Counted from the stretch's first letter, positions 1-27,013 are shown. The stretch is DNA of 27,929 nt from a virus (IMGVR_UViG_2802429243_000001), one strand, 5' to 3'. Made by a program: numbers and translations. The notes: generated from the sequence alone by a model not told the origin.

Positions 1-469
1 TTACTATGCTTTTTATTAACATAAACTCACTACAACGCACCTGAAACCTCTTGCTATATATATGTCAACCGTTTGAATTTAAAATAAAAAGAGTATCATT
101 TTTACTTGCATTTCTTATCAAGTCACATTCAACAACAGTAAAAAAACATTATTAGAACCATTCAATTAACAAAAAACCAACATTCAGCTTGCTTAATTTT
201 TCTTTATTAAACGATATTGAAAATCAATTGATAAAATACATCTAAACAACCTTTTGGGGCGCAAAAGCATAACATCAAACAAACAAATAACACACCGAAA
301 AAACTCACAATTAATAACCTATGATATACATACTGTTTATTATGGTTGAATAAGCCACTCGATATCTGGTGCTACGGAAGTGTCCACACGGTTTAGCAAC
401 ACCCGATACTTTTTCCTGGCTTCCAGCAACGGGGTTTCTTCCTCCGTTGCATATACAGCTCACCTTTTT

Positions 470-763
470 TCACCCACGATTAACCAACAGCCAGACCAGC
501 AGACACGCCACCACCGGCACAGCAAAATCCATCAGGCTTGCCACATCCCAAGCTCGCGGATCAAAACCGCCCCACCACGGCATATTCATACGCTTGCCAT
601 GTCCGAACATTTCAATCCAGCGATATTCTGCCTGGGTGTGTTCACGCGCAATGAAGAACGTACAACCAGCTATCGCTCCGTAAGCCCAGTTTCCGGTAAA
701 AAGACCAACCAGTATCTGCGCAGCCACAGCACAAAGTGCATGAAGTAAGGGGCTTATATCCAT
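470..763 (-). CDS. Small hydrophobic protein (97 aa, about 3 predicted TM segments), function unknown; last gene of the stf operon
   Basis: ATG at 763 preceded by AAGGAGG 5 nt upstream; the RBS lies inside the end of the upstream 92-aa gene. Translation has three hydrophobic stretches (LLHALCAVAAQILVGLF, AYGAIAGCTFFIA, LMDFAVPVVACLLVWLLV). I recognise no family. Confidence 0.55.
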   Translation of the reverse strand: MDISPLLHALCAVAAQILVGLFTGNWAYGAIAGCTFFIAREHTQAEYRWIEMFGHGKRMNMPWWGGFDPRAWDVASLMDFAVPVVACLLVWLLVNRG

Positions 764-775
764 TATTTCCTCCTT

Positions 776-1054
776 TCAGCTCCATTCCCGAAGCGGTGTT
801 TCCAGCTCCACGACATAATCAGAGAATACAGAAACATCAAACAAGTCATCAAGAATGCGAATGTTGACAAAATAACCGTCATTCCGGATACAGACAGGTT
901 CTCCCTCTTCAGTTACCCCTGTTTCTGTGTAGGTGAAACCAATTTCATCGACTAACAGTTTATTCTGGAGGTCTTCATCTTCCTCCCAGTCAAGAGATGA
1001 CAGGAAGGATTTAAACTCTCTGTTTCCAGGAAATTTCAAAGTTAAATCTTTCAT
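776..1054 (-). CDS. Small strongly acidic protein (92 aa, about 24 D/E vs 8 K/R), function unknown; translationally coupled to stf
   Basis: ATG overlaps the stf stop (ATGA at 1051-1054); AGGAGG 4 nt upstream. I recognise no family. Confidence 0.55.
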   Translation of the reverse strand: MKDLTLKFPGNREFKSFLSSLDWEEDEDLQNKLLVDEIGFTYTETGVTEEGEPVCIRNDGYFVNIRILDDLFDVSVFSDYVVELETPLREWS

Positions 1055-3072
1055 ACTGCCTCCTTGATTTGCCTGTCATTTAATTCTTTAAACCAGACTC
1101 TGAAATTTCTGATGTGTCCAAACAAATGACGCGTTCCTGCTGCGGTCTGCCCACCAAACCGGTACGATGTTGCTGTAACTCCAAATATTTTACCATTAAG
1201 GTTTGTTGTATAATTACCATTGCATATTGCATTTACTGATAAATCAGATTTAGCTCTCACACCCACAATGAACCTTTCTCCATCTGAGGCAATTTGTGGC
1301 TGAACCATTCCTACGTTGGCGCTTATCTTTCCTGTTGAAACAAACCCCAGCGATAAATAATTATCATCAATACTGTGCCCTCCAACATCAAATATCCTTG
1401 GCGCAACATTGGGCGGTGTACTCCAGTTCCTGCTTACTTCGCACAATACCGTAAAAGGCCGTGTTGACAGGTTATTCTGCGATGGGATAGTAACCACATC
1501 ACTTGCGCGTGTTGTTGGCATTGTAGTTACAATAAATGACGATGCCGTATTGCCCAGTTCAATTTGCGGCGTCGTCATGGTTAATGTTGAGTCATCATAG
1601 AATGGCTCATTACTTATTTTATTTGTCATATAAAAAGCACAGTTAACGGTATCAATGTCCGTATTAGCTGTATAAGTGGCCTCATAGTAGGTCCACTCGC
1701 CCTGTTGTTCAGCTTTGGCTGTTATAAGGGATGTATTACCGCTTACTGTTGCGATCCGGGTATCCAGATCAAGATAAGAGTCAGCAGAGAAGGTATCTGT
1801 TCCACCAATAATAACTGAAACTCTTAACCTGCATCGTGCTTTAGCGCCTTTAACCCGGCACGAAAAAGTGAAACATTCACCACTTGCCAGCGGGAATCTG
1901 TCTGCTGCAACCACACCATGCACAGTATAGCCACCTGTTGTTCCCACTATACTTTCCGTGGGTGTCACCGTGGCATAATTGAACCCCTGTTTATCAGTGC
2001 CAAATGTTTTATTCAGTGCGGAATGAACAGTCCATGAGTCTGGTTTATTTGAGTTCCTCAGATAATTTGTCCTCTGTCCTTCAATCAATAAGCCATCGCG
2101 CTCAAATCGCGGTTCATCAACTTCAGCAAGCTTGAGTTGGCCGGACTTATTAATATACGTTGCTGTTGAAGCACGTTTAAACTTAACAATCTTGTCGCCT
2201 GGCATTGTTATTTCATCGTCACCAATAACAATCTTTTTATATGATGGCGAAAACCCCGTAATCATATCCAGTGTATCGTTAAACGGTATCCATACATCAG
2301 GCAGCGGCGGCACTATATTCGCATAGGGCTCTGCAGTCACTTCCGCTGCGGCTTCTGCGCGGTCTGCCGCCTTTTCTGCTCGTGTCGCTGCCGACAGAGC
2401 CTCATCCTTTTTCTGCCCGGCCTTTGTTGCGTCTGCTGCGGCCTCCCGCGCTTTTGTGGTGGCGATTCCGGCATTTTCAGCGGCTGACTCTGCATTACGG
2501 CGGGAAGCCTCTTCACTGTCTGCGGAGGCTTCCTCTGACGCACGGGCATTTGTCTCTGAATGTTCTGCCGCTGTTGCTGCATTTTGTGCGGCTGTTTTTG
2601 AAGAAGCTGCCGCTTTCGCGCTGTTACCTGCATTCGTCTCTGATGTTTTCGCCGCGTTCCTGGACGATGCCGCTGCTGTTTCTGATTTCTTTGCTGCCGC
2701 TGCGCTCTGAGAGGCGGCTTCAGCGTTGCGTGCCGCCTCTTCCACCATCTTTTCAAAACGATACAGTGCCTCCGGACGAACATCATCTTCTGTTGCAGCG
2801 CCCAGAAAATCATTCAATGTCCCCGGCTTAGAATCCTCATACACGGTGATGGTCCCGGCATGTGAAGGCGGAAAACCTTCAACCAGCAGGGCGACGCTGT
2901 ACTGGCCATACTCAACATCCATGCTGTAACGTCCGGCTTCATCCGGATTTTCTGAGGCCACCGTGTTCACCACAACTGTGGTGCTGTTACGTTTTGCTTT
3001 GAGCTGAATGGTGCAGTTCTGTATCGGTTTTCCTGCACCGTCTTTCAGCACACCTGAAATCTGTACTGCCAT
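1051..3072 (-). CDS. stf: Side tail fibre protein (Stf-like); lambda-like N-terminal anchor and Ala/Ser/Thr-rich shaft, non-lambda C-terminal distal domain
   Basis: N-terminus MAVQISGVLKDGAGKPIQNCTIQLKA... matches lambda Stf as I recall it, followed by AAxxSETNA-type repeats. Likely start is the ATG at 3072 (GGAG RBS); the ORF track extends to a GTG at 3078. Confidence 0.85.
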   Translation of the reverse strand: MAVQISGVLKDGAGKPIQNCTIQLKAKRNSTTVVVNTVASENPDEAGRYSMDVEYGQYSVALLVEGFPPSHAGTITVYEDSKPGTLNDFLGAATEDDVRPEALYRFEKMVEEAARNAEAASQSAAAAKKSETAAASSRNAAKTSETNAGNSAKAAASSKTAAQNAATAAEHSETNARASEEASADSEEASRRNAESAAENAGIATTKAREAAADATKAGQKKDEALSAATRAEKAADRAEAAAEVTAEPYANIVPPLPDVWIPFNDTLDMITGFSPSYKKIVIGDDEITMPGDKIVKFKRASTATYINKSGQLKLAEVDEPRFERDGLLIEGQRTNYLRNSNKPDSWTVHSALNKTFGTDKQGFNYATVTPTESIVGTTGGYTVHGVVAADRFPLASGECFTFSCRVKGAKARCRLRVSVIIGGTDTFSADSYLDLDTRIATVSGNTSLITAKAEQQGEWTYYEATYTANTDIDTVNCAFYMTNKISNEPFYDDSTLTMTTPQIELGNTASSFIVTTMPTTRASDVVTIPSQNNLSTRPFTVLCEVSRNWSTPPNVAPRIFDVGGHSIDDNYLSLGFVSTGKISANVGMVQPQIASDGERFIVGVRAKSDLSVNAICNGNYTTNLNGKIFGVTATSYRFGGQTAAGTRHLFGHIRNFRVWFKELNDRQIKEAV

Positions 3073-3084
3073 ATTCACTCCACA

Positions 3085-3112
3085 AATAAAAAAGGCACCA
3101 TTTCTGGTGCCC
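3085..3112 (-). terminator. Putative rho-independent terminator between J and stf
   Basis: On the minus strand, GGCACC-agaaat-GGTGCC hairpin followed by TTTTTTATTT, directly downstream of the J stop. Confidence 0.5.
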
Positions 3113-3130
3113 GAATTTGGGTTTTAAAAT

Positions 3131-6100
3131 TCAACTGATACTGATGCCGGCTGTTGATTTCTTCATCACGACAACAAGAAGGTCGCTGATACTGGTCGTT
3201 GGCGTCCAGTTATTTGCACCATATGAAGAAACATTGAAAGTCAGGGTGACATGGCCGTGTCCGGCAGGCATATCAATGACTGATGAAAATACCCTGCTGA
3301 CATCCGTCGCGGGTTGCTGAAAGATTTCCTGTCCGTTCTTCAGCACCTGCAGCTTACAGGTTGAATACCAGTATGACTGTTGGTTGTTGCTGTTGAAGTT
3401 TTCATGCTTACCACCGCGAAACAGAACGGGGGGGATTACTATCTGACGGTCAAAAGCCTGGTCATCGTACACCGTGACCGTTATTGTACCGCTGGCATAA
3501 CTGCTATTTCTCGGAAAGGCTTTTCCCACCGTTTTAACAATATCGCCTTCAATCTGGTTGGCTGACAGTTTTCCCAGAATCCGGCAGTTCTGATTAATCG
3601 TGACATTGTTGAGCGTCCCGGAGTTCGCGTTCACGTTACCGCTGATATCCGCATTTTTCGCCGTCAGCCGCCCGTCCGGTGTCAGGGAAAATGCCGGAGG
3701 ATTACCGCCGCTGGTAATGGTGGGAGCCGTCAGATATTTCAGGAACACTTCATTCATAAATATCTGATCGCCCTGACCAACAAACATCGGCTTTGTATTG
3801 CCATTCGCAGGATTAATCATCGCAATCCTGTCCGCCGCCAGCAGCACCTGACTCTGCATACCGTCAGGGGTATTCTCAATACCGGCACCAATACCCGCGA
3901 TATAAAGGCGTCCGTCCTGCATCTGCTGCAGCTTCACAGCCCACATGCTGTTCAGGTTATTATTTGTATCAACCTGAACCTTCTGTATCTGCTGGATCGC
4001 TGCACTCTGGTCTTCCAGTTTCTTATTGACGGTCTGCGTGATTTCATTGCTGACATCCGTAATGGACGTCCTGATTTCAGCCAGGTCAGGCGCAAGCTGA
4101 CCGTTATCAATCTGCGTCCACAACTCCTGAGCCAGATGGGTTTTCCCTATCTCTCCTTTGAAAAAATCCAGATAGCCGGATGCATCATCACTCGGCTGGC
4201 CAACAGCCTCCACAAATGCCGATTTGCCAACGGTGTTCACACTGCGAATGTAAAAATAATAATCATGGCCCGGTTTGATATTGATACTAGCGGCTATCCA
4301 GTACAGCGCCGTACCAAGATAACGCGCGCTGGCTTCAACCTGCCTGATATCCGCAATCCGCTTTTCCGAGAACCAGAACTCAAACTGTACCGTCGGATCA
4401 TAAACGGCAAGATGCGGCGTTGCGGTTATCTGAAAATAGCCCGGCGTCAGCTCAATCCGCGATGGCGCTGCCGGTGCGGCAATCCGGAACGATACCGACG
4501 CCGGATCCCCCTGCTGCCCCCACGCATTTACCGCCCGGACTGTCAGCCTGTAGTTCCCCAGCGCCAGTTGCCTGAAGCGGTATGTGGTTTCCGTCGTCCT
4601 GGCCGTGCTGACCAGCCGCTCACTGCCGTCATCCGCTGCCACGGTCAGGCGAAGCATAAAGCTCCCCCCCTTCACCACCTTCGGCGTGTCCCAGCGCGCC
4701 AGCACCTGGTATTCCCCGCTGTCTGCGGTGACTTCTGCAGTCAGGTGCTGCACCGCGGGCGGCGTGACACCGTTCACCGTTCCGCTCTGGTCGCCGTCAA
4801 AGTACGCCCCGTTATCCACGATGGCTTCTTTCTCCGGTACATGCTGCACGGCAGTGATGGCATACGTGCCGTCATCGTTCTCACGGATACTCACACAGCG
4901 GAACAGGCGCTGGCGCAGCATCGGCAGCTTCAGCCCCCACACGCTGTATCCGGCAACGCCGTCAGGAACACGGCTCACTTTCACCTTCACACCGTCGGTG
5001 ACGGACTGGACCTCCACGCTGACCGGATTCCCCTGCCCGTCAACCAGGCTTATCAGCGTGGTGCCGGAGGATGGCAGCGTGATTTCACGGTCGAGCGTCA
5101 GCGTCCGGGTCTGGCTGTTCACCGCCAGCACACGCCCACCGATGCTGATACCGGCATAGTCATCATCGCAGATTTCAATGACATCCCCCGGTACATGGCG
5201 AAGCCCTTCAGCACCCACGCTGAAGTCCACGGTCTGCGTTTCCAGCAGCTCCGTTTTAATCAGCCACAGCCCGGCGCGGTGTGCCTGCCCCCGACTGGTA
5301 CAGCCAAAGGCATCCATCTTCGTGACGTTACGGCCGTAACGGGCAATGGCCTGCGTATCCTCCACGAGCTCTGTCGCCGTCTCCCAGCCGTTGTTCGGGT
5401 CAATCCAGTTCACCTCAACGGCATTATGGCGGTCCTTCAGGGCGCTGAAGCTGTAGCGGAACGGCGCGCCATCATCCGGCATCACCACATTACTGCGGTT
5501 ATAGGTCCACACCTTATCTGATGGTCGGTCCTGCACGAACGTCAGCGTCTGCCCGTTCCATACCGGCATACAGCGCATCGCCGAGCAGAAATCACTGAGC
5601 ACATCCCACGCCTTGCGCTGTGTGGTCAGGTACGCATTACAGGTGATGCGCGGCTCCGTGCCGCCAAAGCCGTCCGGCACTGACTGGTCGCAGTACTGGC
5701 CGATGACATACAGCGCCCATTTATCCACATCCGCCGCACCAAGACGTTTCCCCATGCCGTAGCGCGGATGGGTCAGCATATCCCACAGACACCAGGCCAT
5801 GTTGTTGCTGTATGCCGGTTTAAACGTTCCGTCCCAGATACCGCTGTATTGCCGCGTCTGCGGGTTATAATTCGACGGCACCTGCAGAATACGCCCGCGC
5901 AGATGATAATTACGGCTCACCTGCTGACTGCCGAACTGCTCCGAGTCCACCTGCACGCCGACCAGTGCCGTGTTCGGGTAGCACTGTTTCACATCGATAA
6001 TTTCGGTGTATGACGACCAGAGCGTTTTGTTCTGCAGCTGGTCTGTGGTGCTGTCCGGCGTCATCCTGCGCATCCGGATACTGAACGGGCGCGGCGGCAG

Positions 6101-6613
6101 GTTATCCACCACCACCGAGGCCAGATACTGTGAAGTGGTTTTACCCTTAATGGTGATGTCTTTTTCCGTCACCCAGCCACCGTTACGTTGTATCTGAACC
6201 AGCAGGCGGACTTCCGATGGATTCCTGTCCCCCTTTGAGGTGGTTTCCACCAGTGCCTGCACGCCGAAAGTAAAACGCAGACGGTCAATGTTTGCCGACG
6301 TGATGGTCCGGGTGATCGGCGTGTCATATTTCACTTCTGTACCGAGCACCGTCTCGGAGCCGGAGGATTCAAATCCCTCCGGCGGTGTCTGCTCCTGCTC
6401 ACCGGCCCGGAACACCACCGTGACGCCGGATATATTGGTATTCCCCTCACTGTCCAGCACCGGCGTACTGTTCAGCAGCACGCTTTTTAATCCATCCACC
6501 GGACCTTCAACCGGCCCTTCGCTGATGGCATCGATCACACTCAGCAGCTGCGTGGACTTCAGGTTGTCCTTCGCTTCGCGCGGGATATGCCCCTTACTGC
6601 TGCCTTTACCCAT
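3131..6613 (-). CDS. J: Tail tip host-specificity protein J (central tail fibre), 1160 aa
   Basis: N-terminal about 850 aa near-identical to lambda gpJ as recalled (MGKGSSKGH...); C-terminal about 300 aa differ. Confidence 0.95.
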
Positions 6614-21925: not shown

Positions 21926-22102
21926 TGTTCATTCCACGGACAAAAACAGAGAAAGGAAACGACAGAGGCCCAAAAGTTCGTTTTCAGCACCTGTCGTTTC
22001 CTTTCTTTTCAGGGGGTATTTTAAATAAAAACATTAAGTTACGACGAAGAAGAACGGAAACGCCTTAAACCGGAAAATTTTCATAAATAGCGAAAACCCG
22101 CG
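21926..22102 (-). promoter_or_regulatory. cosB region (terminase-binding R sites and IHF site) between cosN and Nu1
   Basis: Minus-strand sequence from 22114 downward reads GGGCGGCGACCTCGCGGGTTTTCGCTATTTATGAAAATTTTCCGGTTTAAGGCG..., the lambda left end. Confidence 0.8.
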
Positions 22103-22114
22103 AGGTCGCCGCCC
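22103..22114 (-). promoter_or_regulatory. cosN: 12-nt cohesive-end sequence (GGGCGGCGACCT on the minus strand); mature genome ends here
   Basis: Plus strand AGGTCGCCGCCC at 22103-22114; the flanking minus-strand CGATCCGACAGGTTACG matches the lambda right end as recalled. Confidence 0.85.
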
Positions 22115-22313
22115 CGTAACCTGTCGGATCGCCGGAAAGGACCCGCAAAATGATAATAATTATCATCTACATGTCACAACGTGCATCTACGCCATCAAAC
22201 CACGTCAAATAATCAATTATGACGCAGGTATCGTATTAATTGATCTGCATCAACTTAACGTAAAAACAACTTCAGACAATACAAATCAGCGACACTGAAT
22301 ACAGGGCAACCTC

Positions 22314-22547
22314 ATGTCAACGAAGAACAGAACCCGCAGAACAACAACCCGCAACATCCGCTTTCCTAACCAAATGATTGAACAAATTAACATCGCTCTT
22401 GTTCAAAAAGGGTCCGGGAATTTCTCAGCCTGGGTCATTGAAGCCTGCCGCCGGAGACTGTGCTCAGAAAAAAGAGTTTCGCCTGAAGCAAACAAAGAAA
22501 AGAGTGACATTACTGAATTGCTCAGAAAACAGGTCAGACCAGATTGA
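22314..22547 (+). CDS. Small ribbon-helix-helix-like DNA-binding protein (77 aa), AT-rich accessory gene
   Basis: Basic N-terminus (RTRRTTTRNIRF), then two short helices separated by KGSG (NQMIEQINIALVQ / NFSAWVIEACRRRL), typical RHH topology. Opposite strand to the late genes. Confidence 0.55.
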   Translation: MSTKNRTRRTTTRNIRFPNQMIEQINIALVQKGSGNFSAWVIEACRRRLCSEKRVSPEANKEKSDITELLRKQVRPD

Positions 22548-22604
22548 AGCAATTTAGATAATCGTGCAGACTACGCCCCATCATATCACATGGAAGGTAC
22601 TACA

Positions 22605-23015
22605 ATGGCTCAGGTTGCCATTTTTAAACAAATATTCGATAAAGTGCGAAATAATTTAAACTATCACTGGTTTTATTCTGAACTAAAACGTCACAATGTC
22701 TCACATTACATTTACTATTTAGCCACAGAGAATATTCATCTTGTTCTTGAAAACGATAATACGGTTTTAATAAAAGGACAGGGTAAGGTTGTAAATGTAA
22801 GATTTTCAAAAAATAAATGCCTTATAGAAGCCACCTTAAAAGGATTCAAATCAGGAGAGTTATCATTTTACGAATACAGGAAAAATCTTGCTACAGCAGG
22901 GGTTTTCAGATGGATTACAAATATCCACGAAAACAAAAGGTATTACTATACCTTTGATAATTCATTACTATTTACTGAGAACATTCAGAACACTACACAA
23001 ATATTTCCGCACTAA
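22605..23015 (+). CDS. DUF1398 / YbcV-like protein (136 aa), AT-rich accessory gene
   Basis: ATG at 22605 with GGAAGG 7 nt upstream; length and position match YbcV of DLP12 (the lambda putative envelope protein) as recalled. The ORF track start at 22590 has no RBS. Confidence 0.55.
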
Positions 23016-25930: not shown

Positions 25931-26662
25931 TTACATCATGTCTTTTTCTAAAAAAAATCTTGATGAATATTGATGGGGAGGAACACCAAAATATCTTCTG
26001 AAAACACTTACAAAATATGACGTGTTTTCATAACCGCATATCTCAGCAACTTTTCCAACAGAATATAAATTGTAGCTTAATAACCTTTCCGCCATCACCA
26101 TTCGCTCTTCAAGAATTAATTTACTAAATGATAAGCCTTCGTGCTTTAATTTTCTTTTTAACAGACTTTCACTCAGATACAGTCTTGAAGATATATCACA
26201 AAGTCTCCATGTTGCAGATATATCCGTGTGAATAATAGCCTTAACTTTACTTCCTAAACTATTAAGACATCCAAATAAAAAACTTTGCACTATTTTCTCT
26301 GAAGATAAGATAGCAAGACATGCAAGTGATATTTGATTTCTAACAAAATCCACAGTTCTGCCATCACAATTCAAGCATGCAATCAAGTTCTTTAACAATG
26401 AAAAATCTTCACATTCCACCATCAAGTATGCCGGATAAAACCTTCTTACAGAAAAAGGTGAGAGTGTGTTGCTTTTAAAGAAATCATTAACTGTTTTCTC
26501 TTCAACATCTACGATCATTACATGATCTATATTTGATGAAAAAAAATCTTTTAAATTGTAATCAATGAGAACAGCACTTCCTTTTTTAAACAAAATATCT
26601 TCTTTACCAATTCGGACATCAAACGAGTTCAACACCAAAATGATAGAACATATGTATGGCAT
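25931..26662 (-). CDS. AraC-family transcriptional regulator, AppY/EnvY-like (about 243 aa), AT-rich accessory gene
   Basis: C-terminal AraC-type HTH (VGKVAEICGYENTSYFVSVFRRYFGVPPHQY); N-terminus MPYICSIILVLNSFD... resembles AppY of DLP12 as recalled. ATG at 26662 with AGGTGG RBS; the track start at 26671 is a GTG. Confidence 0.75.
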   Translation of the reverse strand: MPYICSIILVLNSFDVRIGKEDILFKKGSAVLIDYNLKDFFSSNIDHVMIVDVEEKTVNDFFKSNTLSPFSVRRFYPAYLMVECEDFSLLKNLIACLNCDGRTVDFVRNQISLACLAILSSEKIVQSFLFGCLNSLGSKVKAIIHTDISATWRLCDISSRLYLSESLLKRKLKHEGLSFSKLILEERMVMAERLLSYNLYSVGKVAEICGYENTSYFVSVFRRYFGVPPHQYSSRFFLEKDMM

Positions 26663-27013
26663 ATTATCCACCTGATATCATTGGGGTTACACCAGGTAAG
26701 TATAGGTGGAAAATCAATATTCGCCAGTTCAACAATAAGGAAAATCTCATTGCATCACAAGTATAAAATTATGTATTTAACTCACAAAGACAAATTATTA
26801 AACCAATCTGTTATATTATATATAGCTGCGTGGAATCATAATATCATATATTTTGACTGGCATGTTTACCAAATTTAAGTTGCATCTCAATGGTTTCTTC
26901 AGCGTAAACAGAGTTTTTATACAAACTGACACTCTGGGTATCATAGTGTAGTTTTTACGATTGTAAATATCCTGTATGCAGGAACTCATCCTTTTGGATG
27001 ATATCGCATACAA

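Follow-up and report, generated by a model that had tools for sequence, protein, structure and literature searches.

What do two small genes packed behind a side tail fibre gene do, and does either of them serve the fibre? The question is raised by IMGVR_UViG_2802429243_000001, a viral stretch of DNA of 27,929 nucleotides (nt; the whole stretch is referred to here as the window), in which three head-to-tail minus-strand genes, stf, orf92 and orf97, lie downstream of J. An earlier note, made from the sequence alone, had read these genes as a remodelled tail fibre locus, with a chimeric stf followed by the two small genes in place of tfa. A listing of the open reading frames (ORFs) of the window confirmed all three at the expected coordinates and placed them on the minus strand.

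3131-6613, minus strand: J
1051-3078, minus strand: stf, side tail fibre gene, 675 amino acids (aa) when read from GTG 3078 (ORF; Pfam, PHROG and NCBIfam matches)
776-1054, minus strand: orf92, acidic 92-aa putative fibre partner, phrog_1361/phrog_18574 (ORF, PHROG, synteny, model)
470-763, minus strand: orf97, three-helix membrane protein, phrog_1443 (ORF, PHROG, model)

The explanation that best accounts for the locus as a whole, and to which we give somewhat more credence than doubt, is that of a phage 21-type module in which the product of orf92 would be a partner of the fibre and that of orf97 an accessory of the cell envelope. (The names orf92 and orf97 are used below for genes and products alike.)

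The three genes are as tightly coupled as had been described, each small one with a strong ribosome binding site. The stop codon of stf shares bases with the ATG of orf92 (GTATGA, 1051-1054), and orf97 starts 12 nt past the orf92 stop; the Shine-Dalgarno sequence AAGGAGG occurs at 1059-1065, within the 3′ end of stf, for orf92, and again at 769-775 for orf97. A promoter scan found no promoter-like site inside orf92 that could drive orf97, the whole scan standing at chance level. Both small genes are real, given their PHROG family membership (E 2e-58 and 1e-39) and, for orf97, the five synonymous and zero non-synonymous codon changes that separate it from the phage 21 copy. The start of stf is probably ATG 3072, reading MAVQISG, rather than the GTG at 3078 picked by the ORF lister, because lambda Stf and the phage 21 annotation both read so.

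A phage 21-type side tail fibre module

Comparison with phage 21 showed that the locus belongs to a lambda-like prophage and is a side tail fibre module of the phage 21 type. Across the trio, identity to the phage 21 genes CPT_21_22, 23 and 24 (GenBank OL657228) is 92-100%. These genes bear the labels side tail fibre, hypothetical protein and putative membrane protein; HHpred was used in annotating that genome, yet its authors gave neither small gene a function. Gene order and joints are the same in both phages, orf97 is 100% and orf92 92% identical, and the N-terminal 338 residues and last 36 residues of Stf are ~93% identical at the DNA level. The differences lie in the central receptor-binding cassette of Stf (~300 aa), which is another allele with ~43% protein identity, and downstream of the module, where phage 21 carries sitABCD and the window runs into the appY region.

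The arrangement of the trio is common and has been sequenced many times already; it is neither a rare nor a surprising structure, and the idea of a special remodelling was not upheld. At least 80% of window positions 1-3200 is covered in 509 of 5426 complete Escherichia coli genomes, and at least 80% of the region is also covered in 12 phage records.

The side tail fibre and its predicted lectin-type end

By its sequence matches Stf is a chimera, in which the anchor and shaft of lambda are kept and a lectin-type fibre follows from about residue 243. Residues 1-160 are 74% identical to lambda orf-401, and residues 136-242 match its Ala/Ser/Thr shaft at 53%. Past residue 242, tblastn of Stf against lambda gave no significant match, so that the lambda-like C-terminal (orf-314) part is lacking, in keeping with the unrelated C-terminal region that had been recognised from the sequence. 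Stf matches phrog_1419 (E 8e-294); its sole Pfam match is phage_tail_N (PF08400; residues 3-133, E 2.3e-68), and PDB chain 9e7m ('Tail fiber protein') matches residues 3-96. From the N- to the C-terminus, the gene is made up of the following parts.

2680-3072, minus strand: N-terminal lambda-type anchor, residues 3-133 (PF08400, lambda orf-401 identity, PDB 9e7m)
2314-2679, minus strand: Ala/Ser/Thr-rich shaft, residues ~134-255 (lambda orf-401 match, translated composition)
2063-2313, minus strand: conserved junction block PLPDVWIPFND...EPRFERDGLLIEGQRTNY, residues ~256-338 (DNA blocks, protein alignments)
1163-2062, minus strand: exchangeable receptor-binding cassette, residues ~339-638, ~300 aa (unalignable with phage 21; NF048003)
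1054-1162, minus strand: conserved last 36 stf codons (...RHLFGHIRNFRVWFKELNDRQIKEAV) (homology block 395-1162 against phage 21)

Between the window and phage 21, identity is 93-94% over positions 395-1162 and 2063-3300, and no alignment was obtained over 1163-2062. The conserved C-terminal end of Stf thus travels with orf92 and orf97 as one homology block, and its C-terminal motif recurs in the fibres of the T5-like phage IrisVonRoten, the T1-like phage tonn, the sequences L006 and L008, and Aeromonas. The junction block is likewise common to fibres of T1-like, T5-like and Aeromonas phages: its DNA blocks are conserved with phage 21, L006, L008, IrisVonRoten and tonn, and the Aeromonas fibre was matched by BLASTP.

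On its domain match, the new end of Stf is a lectin-type fibre on the head-spike-fibre (ConA/LamG-like) fold of gene transfer agents (GTAs). The NCBIfam model NF048003, GTA_spike_fiber, matched Stf residues 331-525 (nt 1504-2088), mostly within the exchangeable cassette, with 66.8 bits against a curated cut-off of 36 bits (E 3.5e-18). Its founding member, the head spike fibre of RcGTA (Rcc01080, GhsB), is beta-rich and lectin-like and binds capsular polysaccharide (PMC10218006). It resembles Stf in the NF048003 domain and the beta-rich lectin-like fold, and differs in that its N-terminus is attached to the capsid spike base, not to the tail. Polysaccharide binding was demonstrated experimentally for Rcc01080 only; for Stf, sugar binding is predicted. 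In IrisVonRoten, the homologous Gp22 is described as a proximal fibre whose C-terminal domain is galectin-like and onto which the distal fibre is attached (bioRxiv 10.1101/2024.09.12.612763).

Directly after orf97 lies a trace of the gene that follows the fibre gene in lambda.

340-459, minus strand: tfa 3′ remnant, 39 codons, pseudogene, right-hand recombination joint (Pfam Caudo_TAP, lambda Tfa identity)

This stretch matches Caudo_TAP (PF02413) over positions 95-130/131 (E 1e-12) and shares 81% identity with the C-terminal 36 aa of lambda Tfa, and PGAP labels the matching stretch in strain TUM1886 a tfa pseudogene. The earlier statement that no tfa follows was therefore right for an intact gene but had missed the 3′ remnant. 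The loss of the lambda match from about residue 243 and the tfa remnant show how the chimera arose. Recombination swapped out the distal lambda-type stf, from about residue 243, together with nearly all of tfa; the left joint is in the shaft, and the right joint falls within the 39 tfa codons that are left. What came in was a lectin-type fibre end, the 92-aa gene and the 97-aa gene, the fibre end consisting of the conserved junction, a ~300-aa exchangeable cassette on the GTA head-spike-fibre fold, and the conserved C-terminal strand. With lambda the locus shares, besides the tfa remnant, the Stf anchor and shaft, the position after J and a small gene directly after the fibre gene, whereas the C-terminal 430 aa of Stf are unrelated to those of lambda Stf.

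Two further observations concern this stf allele. Insertion sequences (IS4, IS2, IS3 or IS5) split it in phage Lambda_4B5 and in many of the complete E. coli genomes, and the interrupted copies are annotated as two proteins; the fibre gene is often inactivated in prophages. A TTGYN6TTGY motif lies at 2574-2587 on the plus strand, where the annotation of phage 21 stf has a CII binding site; a CII-type site here was rejected, as the window contains 5 such motifs and 5.6 are expected by chance.

orf92 as a putative partner of the fibre

orf92 contains 22 Asp and Glu residues against 8 Lys and Arg. Its acidity, pointed out earlier, was borne out by an isoelectric point (pI) of 4.05, although the net charge is about -14 and not the -16 first estimated. 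The protein matches phrog_1361 over its full length (E 1.4e-39); phrog_1361 and phrog_18574 make up the orf92 family, and both are of unknown function in PHROGs. The family is small: a word-indexed search gave 45 clusters, and an exhaustive profile search of 1.84 billion proteins gave 84 representatives, among them a few long proteins whose match is confined to short repeated segments.

A homologue of orf92 was found in 145 phage records, which include virulent T1-like and T5-like phages, Dhillonvirus and Seuratvirus, and among the matches listed it overlaps an annotated tail fibre gene. The lineages examined more closely for gene order were the T5-like IrisVonRoten, the T1-like tonn, the Aeromonas myovirus 14AhydR10PP, the cyanomyovirus S-WAM2, a P1-like Leclercia element with two tandem fibre-partner pairs, and Comamonas and Pantoea prophages. 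In every one of them the upstream neighbour of the orf92 homologue has a GTA_spike_fiber domain, and the fibre stop and the orf92-family start overlap or abut. Judged from this synteny, orf92 would be the dedicated partner of the GTA_spike_fiber class of fibres, standing in for the unrelated Tfa. The fibre-accessory, chaperone-type role put forward in the earlier note fits a family that is coupled to one fibre type in all these lineages, and the overlapping stop and start would make orf92 in step with the fibre.

The model of orf92 (predicted local distance difference test (pLDDT) 89) is a compact beta-alpha-alpha-beta-beta sandwich, which bears no structural resemblance to Tfa-type chaperones and for which a fold search against BFVD returned only uncharacterised phage proteins. 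Against Pfam at E up to 0.1, orf92 matched no family, Caudo_TAP included. Identity with Tfa was accordingly rejected; only the 39-codon remnant matches the Caudo_TAP family. More broadly, neither orf92 nor orf97 matched anything in Pfam or NCBIfam, PHROGs placed both in families of unknown function only, and no PADLOC defence model matched either at E up to 1. Neither protein is discussed in the phage 21 genome, BASEL, DT57C fibre, LL5, Hf4s, svsR or Eligo literature, and a literature search by accession and PHROG id returned nothing on them. That both proteins had gone unrecognised at first reading is thus matched by these searches, in which neither showed clear homology to a chaperone or to a characterised family.

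A quite different reading is that both small genes benefit or defend the lysogen, orf92 as a DNA mimic or exclusion factor and orf97 by receptor masking or exclusion in the manner of Llp or Cor. The pI of orf92 and the position of both genes at the end of the late operon, a frequent site of exclusion genes and morons, are what such a role would lead one to expect. Yet virulent T1-like and T5-like phages, and a cyanomyovirus too, couple the translation of orf92 to that of the fibre, and a lysogeny-specific role such as exclusion or anti-restriction, which the earlier note had entertained, is therefore unlikely for it. Anti-restriction by DNA mimicry of the Ocr or ArdA kind was rejected as a candidate on three grounds: the lack of a Pfam match, the compact alpha/beta sandwich, and the status of orf92 as a late-operon gene coupled to the fibre. 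With the evidence on orf97 given below, we consider a defence role for the two genes improbable.

If orf92 is instead a partner of the fibre, the part of the fibre on which it acts can be narrowed down. orf92 is 92% identical to its phage 21 counterpart while the receptor cassette is only ~43% identical. Conservation of orf92 while the cassette varies argues that it would act on the conserved parts of the fibre end and not on the variable receptor-binding surface, most likely by aiding folding or assembly of the fibre or by serving as its stoichiometric cap. Here it contrasts with Tfa, which varies with the fibre tip, whereas orf92 is constant across changes of receptor cassette.

In many coliphages orf92 is followed by a distal fibre gene, whose product has the N-terminus MATxTxIPxDIxxLK and a Peptidase_S74 chaperone domain. 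The MATxTxIPxDIxxLK motif occurs in 59 phage records and begins 9-16 nt after orf92 in every record cross-checked, which fits the role of an adaptor; in branched fibres, orf92 may also help to dock the distal fibre. The branched fibres of IrisVonRoten (Gp22-24) and tonn (gp58-60) have the same junction, GTA_spike_fiber domain and C-terminal motif in the proximal fibre as Stf, and a 92-aa homologue (47-50% identity) that overlaps the fibre gene stop. They differ from the locus studied here in having other N-terminal anchors, in having the distal fibre gene with its Peptidase_S74 chaperone domain directly after the 92-aa gene, and in being without orf97. The literature on the IrisVonRoten fibre describes Gp22 and Gp24 without discussion of the 92-aa protein (bioRxiv 10.1101/2024.09.12.612763). 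The distal fibre gene is absent from the window, and orf92 is present nonetheless; it is also kept without a distal fibre in phage 21, in each of the 77 sampled E. coli prophage loci with downstream sequence, and in the Aeromonas, cyanophage and Comamonas cases. Retention of orf92 where no distal fibre exists indicates that its core role would concern the lectin-type fibre itself. Chaperone, cap and adaptor are candidate roles that orf92 may have, alike under the present data.

orf97 as a putative mobile accessory gene

The model of orf97 (pLDDT 93.7) has three hydrophobic helices, at residues 4-23, 26-53 and 74-96, and the hydropathy profile agrees; the protein is thus polytopic, as had been supposed. 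A fold search against the PDB found generic helical bundles only. The family comprises 577 clusters, and at least 2114 after a profile search, none of which has a Pfam domain or an informative name. Between E. coli phages and Comamonas, Aeromonas or sphingomonads, orf97 is 45-65% identical, with H8, R40, E41, Q44, E46, Y47, R48, G56, W72 and P83 invariant and a core motif of RExTQAEYRWI...G.G.R.NMPWWGG. Signals for its topology conflict: basic C-terminal tails suggest a C-terminus on the inside, but the conserved loop has more Lys and Arg than the opposite side.

In phages of sipho-, podo- and myovirus types, orf97 was found directly 3′ of receptor-binding genes that are unrelated to one another.

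P22-like phage Gally: after the tailspike gene
Myovirus phiHAP-1: overlapping the end of tfa, ahead of the sheath gene
P2/HP1-like Leclercia prophage: after the fibre gene
Comamonas and Pantoea: after J-like genes
Leclercia and Desulfovibrio: after tailspike genes
Salmonella 160-kb contig (L166, 3398-8777): between two pectate-lyase-type tailspike genes, beside baseplate genes
Phage HC6: truncated copy after the tailspike gene

Most occurrences of orf97 are in temperate phages and prophages; the size of the Salmonella contig suggests a large, possibly virulent, phage genome. Stable chromosomal copies are found in sphingomonads, downstream of ligA, and in Aeromonas, flanked by pirin and RIO1 genes. 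The virulent phages with orf92 that were examined do not carry orf97; in E. coli prophages, orf97 directly follows orf92 in 77 of the 77 loci with downstream sequence. We picture orf97 as a separately mobile accessory gene that would have been acquired on repeated occasions at the 3′ end of clusters of receptor-binding genes. Its most likely place of action would be the envelope of an infected or lysogenic cell, with a part in excluding superinfection or in the timing of lysis and none in fibre assembly; this envelope role is a guess, which we hold with low confidence.

The constant succession of the three genes in E. coli prophages, with their tight spacing and strong Shine-Dalgarno sites, might instead mean that they form one functional unit, in which orf97 works with orf92 and the lectin fibre as a membrane-bound assembly or holding platform, or as a self-protection device that would stop the sugar-binding fibre or the progeny phage from engaging the glycan pathway of the producing cell. 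The order of fibre, orf92-family and orf97-family genes does recur at low identity, in E. coli lambdoid prophages, the P1-like Leclercia element, Comamonas and Pantoea, and Chelativorans has all three genes with the small ones in swapped order. However, all virulent phages examined have orf92 and the fibre without orf97, and orf97 without orf92 is found behind unrelated tailspike, J-like and P2-type fibre genes as well as alone in chromosomes. In L006 and in the P1-like element (L163), moreover, an intrinsic terminator stands between the fibre genes and orf97. The co-occurrence could be explained by two independent habits, that of orf92 to follow this type of fibre and that of orf97 to follow any receptor-binding gene, and a single unit appears unlikely to us.

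Two of these loci have layouts of their own. In the Leclercia P1-like element (L163, 1892-7164), a GTA_spike_fiber/LamG fibre gene paired with an orf92-family gene occurs twice in tandem; next comes a strong terminator, past which lie the orf97 homologue, a lydA-like gene, lydB and darA. In the alphaproteobacterium Chelativorans (L031, 4526-6590), the same three families are present with orf97 ahead of the orf92-family ORF, and the start of orf97 overlaps the end of the fibre ORF.

Neighbours of another kind raise the question of whether orf97 belongs to lysis, as a holin-like protein or a regulator of lysis timing that travels at the boundary between the tail fibre and lysis modules. In three lineages it borders putative lysis genes: in Comamonas (L003) it is the first in a series of overlapping genes that leads on to a phrog_3108 SLT-like gene and to an Rz-like gene in which a lipobox ORF is embedded; in the P1-like element it stands after the terminator, directly before the lydA-like and lydB genes; and Aeromonas phage 62AhydR11PP has it two genes downstream of a phrog_3108 gene. 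Its small size, its three hydrophobic helices and the basic C-terminal tails of many homologues would also suit such a protein. Against this, the lysis genes are elsewhere in lambdoid, P22-like and P2-like phages and in phiHAP-1, and both the 34-residue loop with its invariant polar residues and the stable chromosomal copies are unusual for holins. As a candidate identity, holin was rejected, with no holin family in Pfam or PHROGs matching orf97, the lysis-sized ORFs of the window lying ~23 kb off, and adjacency to lysis genes confined to some distant relatives. We think it very unlikely that orf97 is a lysis protein.

The phrog_3108 protein found near orf97 homologues, at 6970-7521 of L003 and at 2499-2996 of L169 (Aeromonas phage 62AhydR11PP), has SLT-like E-S and G-F-W-Q motifs, and may represent an unannotated endolysin family.

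As to exclusion or masking, the distribution of orf97, mostly in temperate phages and prophages, would suit a gene of benefit to the lysogen, and orf97 occupies the same type of site, directly 3′ of receptor-binding genes, as T5 llp, cor of phi80 and N15, and P2 Z/fun. In phiHAP-1 its site between tfa and the sheath gene presumably corresponds to that of P2 Z/fun. The comparison with Llp and Cor made in the earlier note nevertheless failed on sequence. orf97 has no similarity to these proteins; it is polytopic, unlike Llp and Cor, and a lipoprotein exclusion factor of their kind was rejected, as Cys11 varies within the family and the H-A-L before it (Leu at -1) is no lipobox. orf97 has no known exclusion phenotype, and it is conserved across hosts and types of receptor-binding protein, where the exclusion genes differ from it. 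Since orf97 is conserved while the neighbouring receptor-binding proteins vary, receptor-specific masking does not fit.

A number of points weigh against a fibre partner and a separate envelope accessory. Binding of orf92 to the fibre is a prediction from synteny, and the recombinant RcGTA head spike fibre was active without a partner protein: it bound cells by itself, and no orf92-like partner has been reported for it (PMC10218006). For orf97, the very high conservation over alpha-, beta- and gamma-proteobacteria and the stable chromosomal copies both count against a phage-specific exclusion factor, the charge distribution leaves the topology ambiguous, and the recurrence of the trio at low identity in alpha-, beta- and gamma-proteobacterial prophages could mean that orf97 works with the fibre.

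Flanking features of the locus

One further signal lies between J and stf.

3093-3112, minus strand: terminator-like hairpin with a T-run, between J and stf (scan; homologous phage 21 site annotated as a terminator)

This hairpin is the only feature in the gap at 3079-3130, which has no lom; in the close relatives E. coli TUM1886 and E. ruysiae L005 a 199-aa lom occupies the gap. On its other side, the module of strain TUM1886 adjoins appY, ompT and envY, and the window itself begins ~200 bp from appY; we take this neighbourhood to be the DLP12 prophage site of K-12. Three stretches of the window are AT-rich (31-34% GC). The first, 1-340, is intergenic DNA towards appY, and the other two, 22000-23000 and 26000-27000, flank the lysis-sized ORFs at 23.6-25.5 kb.

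Implications

In lambda-like phages, as in engineered delivery particles, host range is set by the side tail fibres. Where a fibre end of the lectin type has a partner other than Tfa, the two would need to be moved together in fibre swaps, and orf92 might explain failures of chimeric fibres.

A bolder view, to which we assign only a small chance, is that orf97 represents an undescribed class of small, highly conserved inner-membrane proteins, taken up beside their receptor-binding genes by phages of all three tail types, that forms, with orf92 and the lectin fibre, a three-part module conserved from alpha- to gamma-proteobacteria, in which the membrane protein acts on a universal target in the envelope. 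If so, the target could be a lipid-linked glycan pathway, sparing the sugar-binding fibre or the progeny from being trapped by the producing cell, and orf97 would be a new kind of receptor-management function. Whatever its role, a family of more than 2000 clusters, spread over all tail types and into chromosomes and with invariant polar residues, has neither a name nor a Pfam entry and constitutes a blind spot of annotation. As both orf92 and orf97 are present in phage 21, which is classical and genetically tractable, direct tests of the two genes are feasible.

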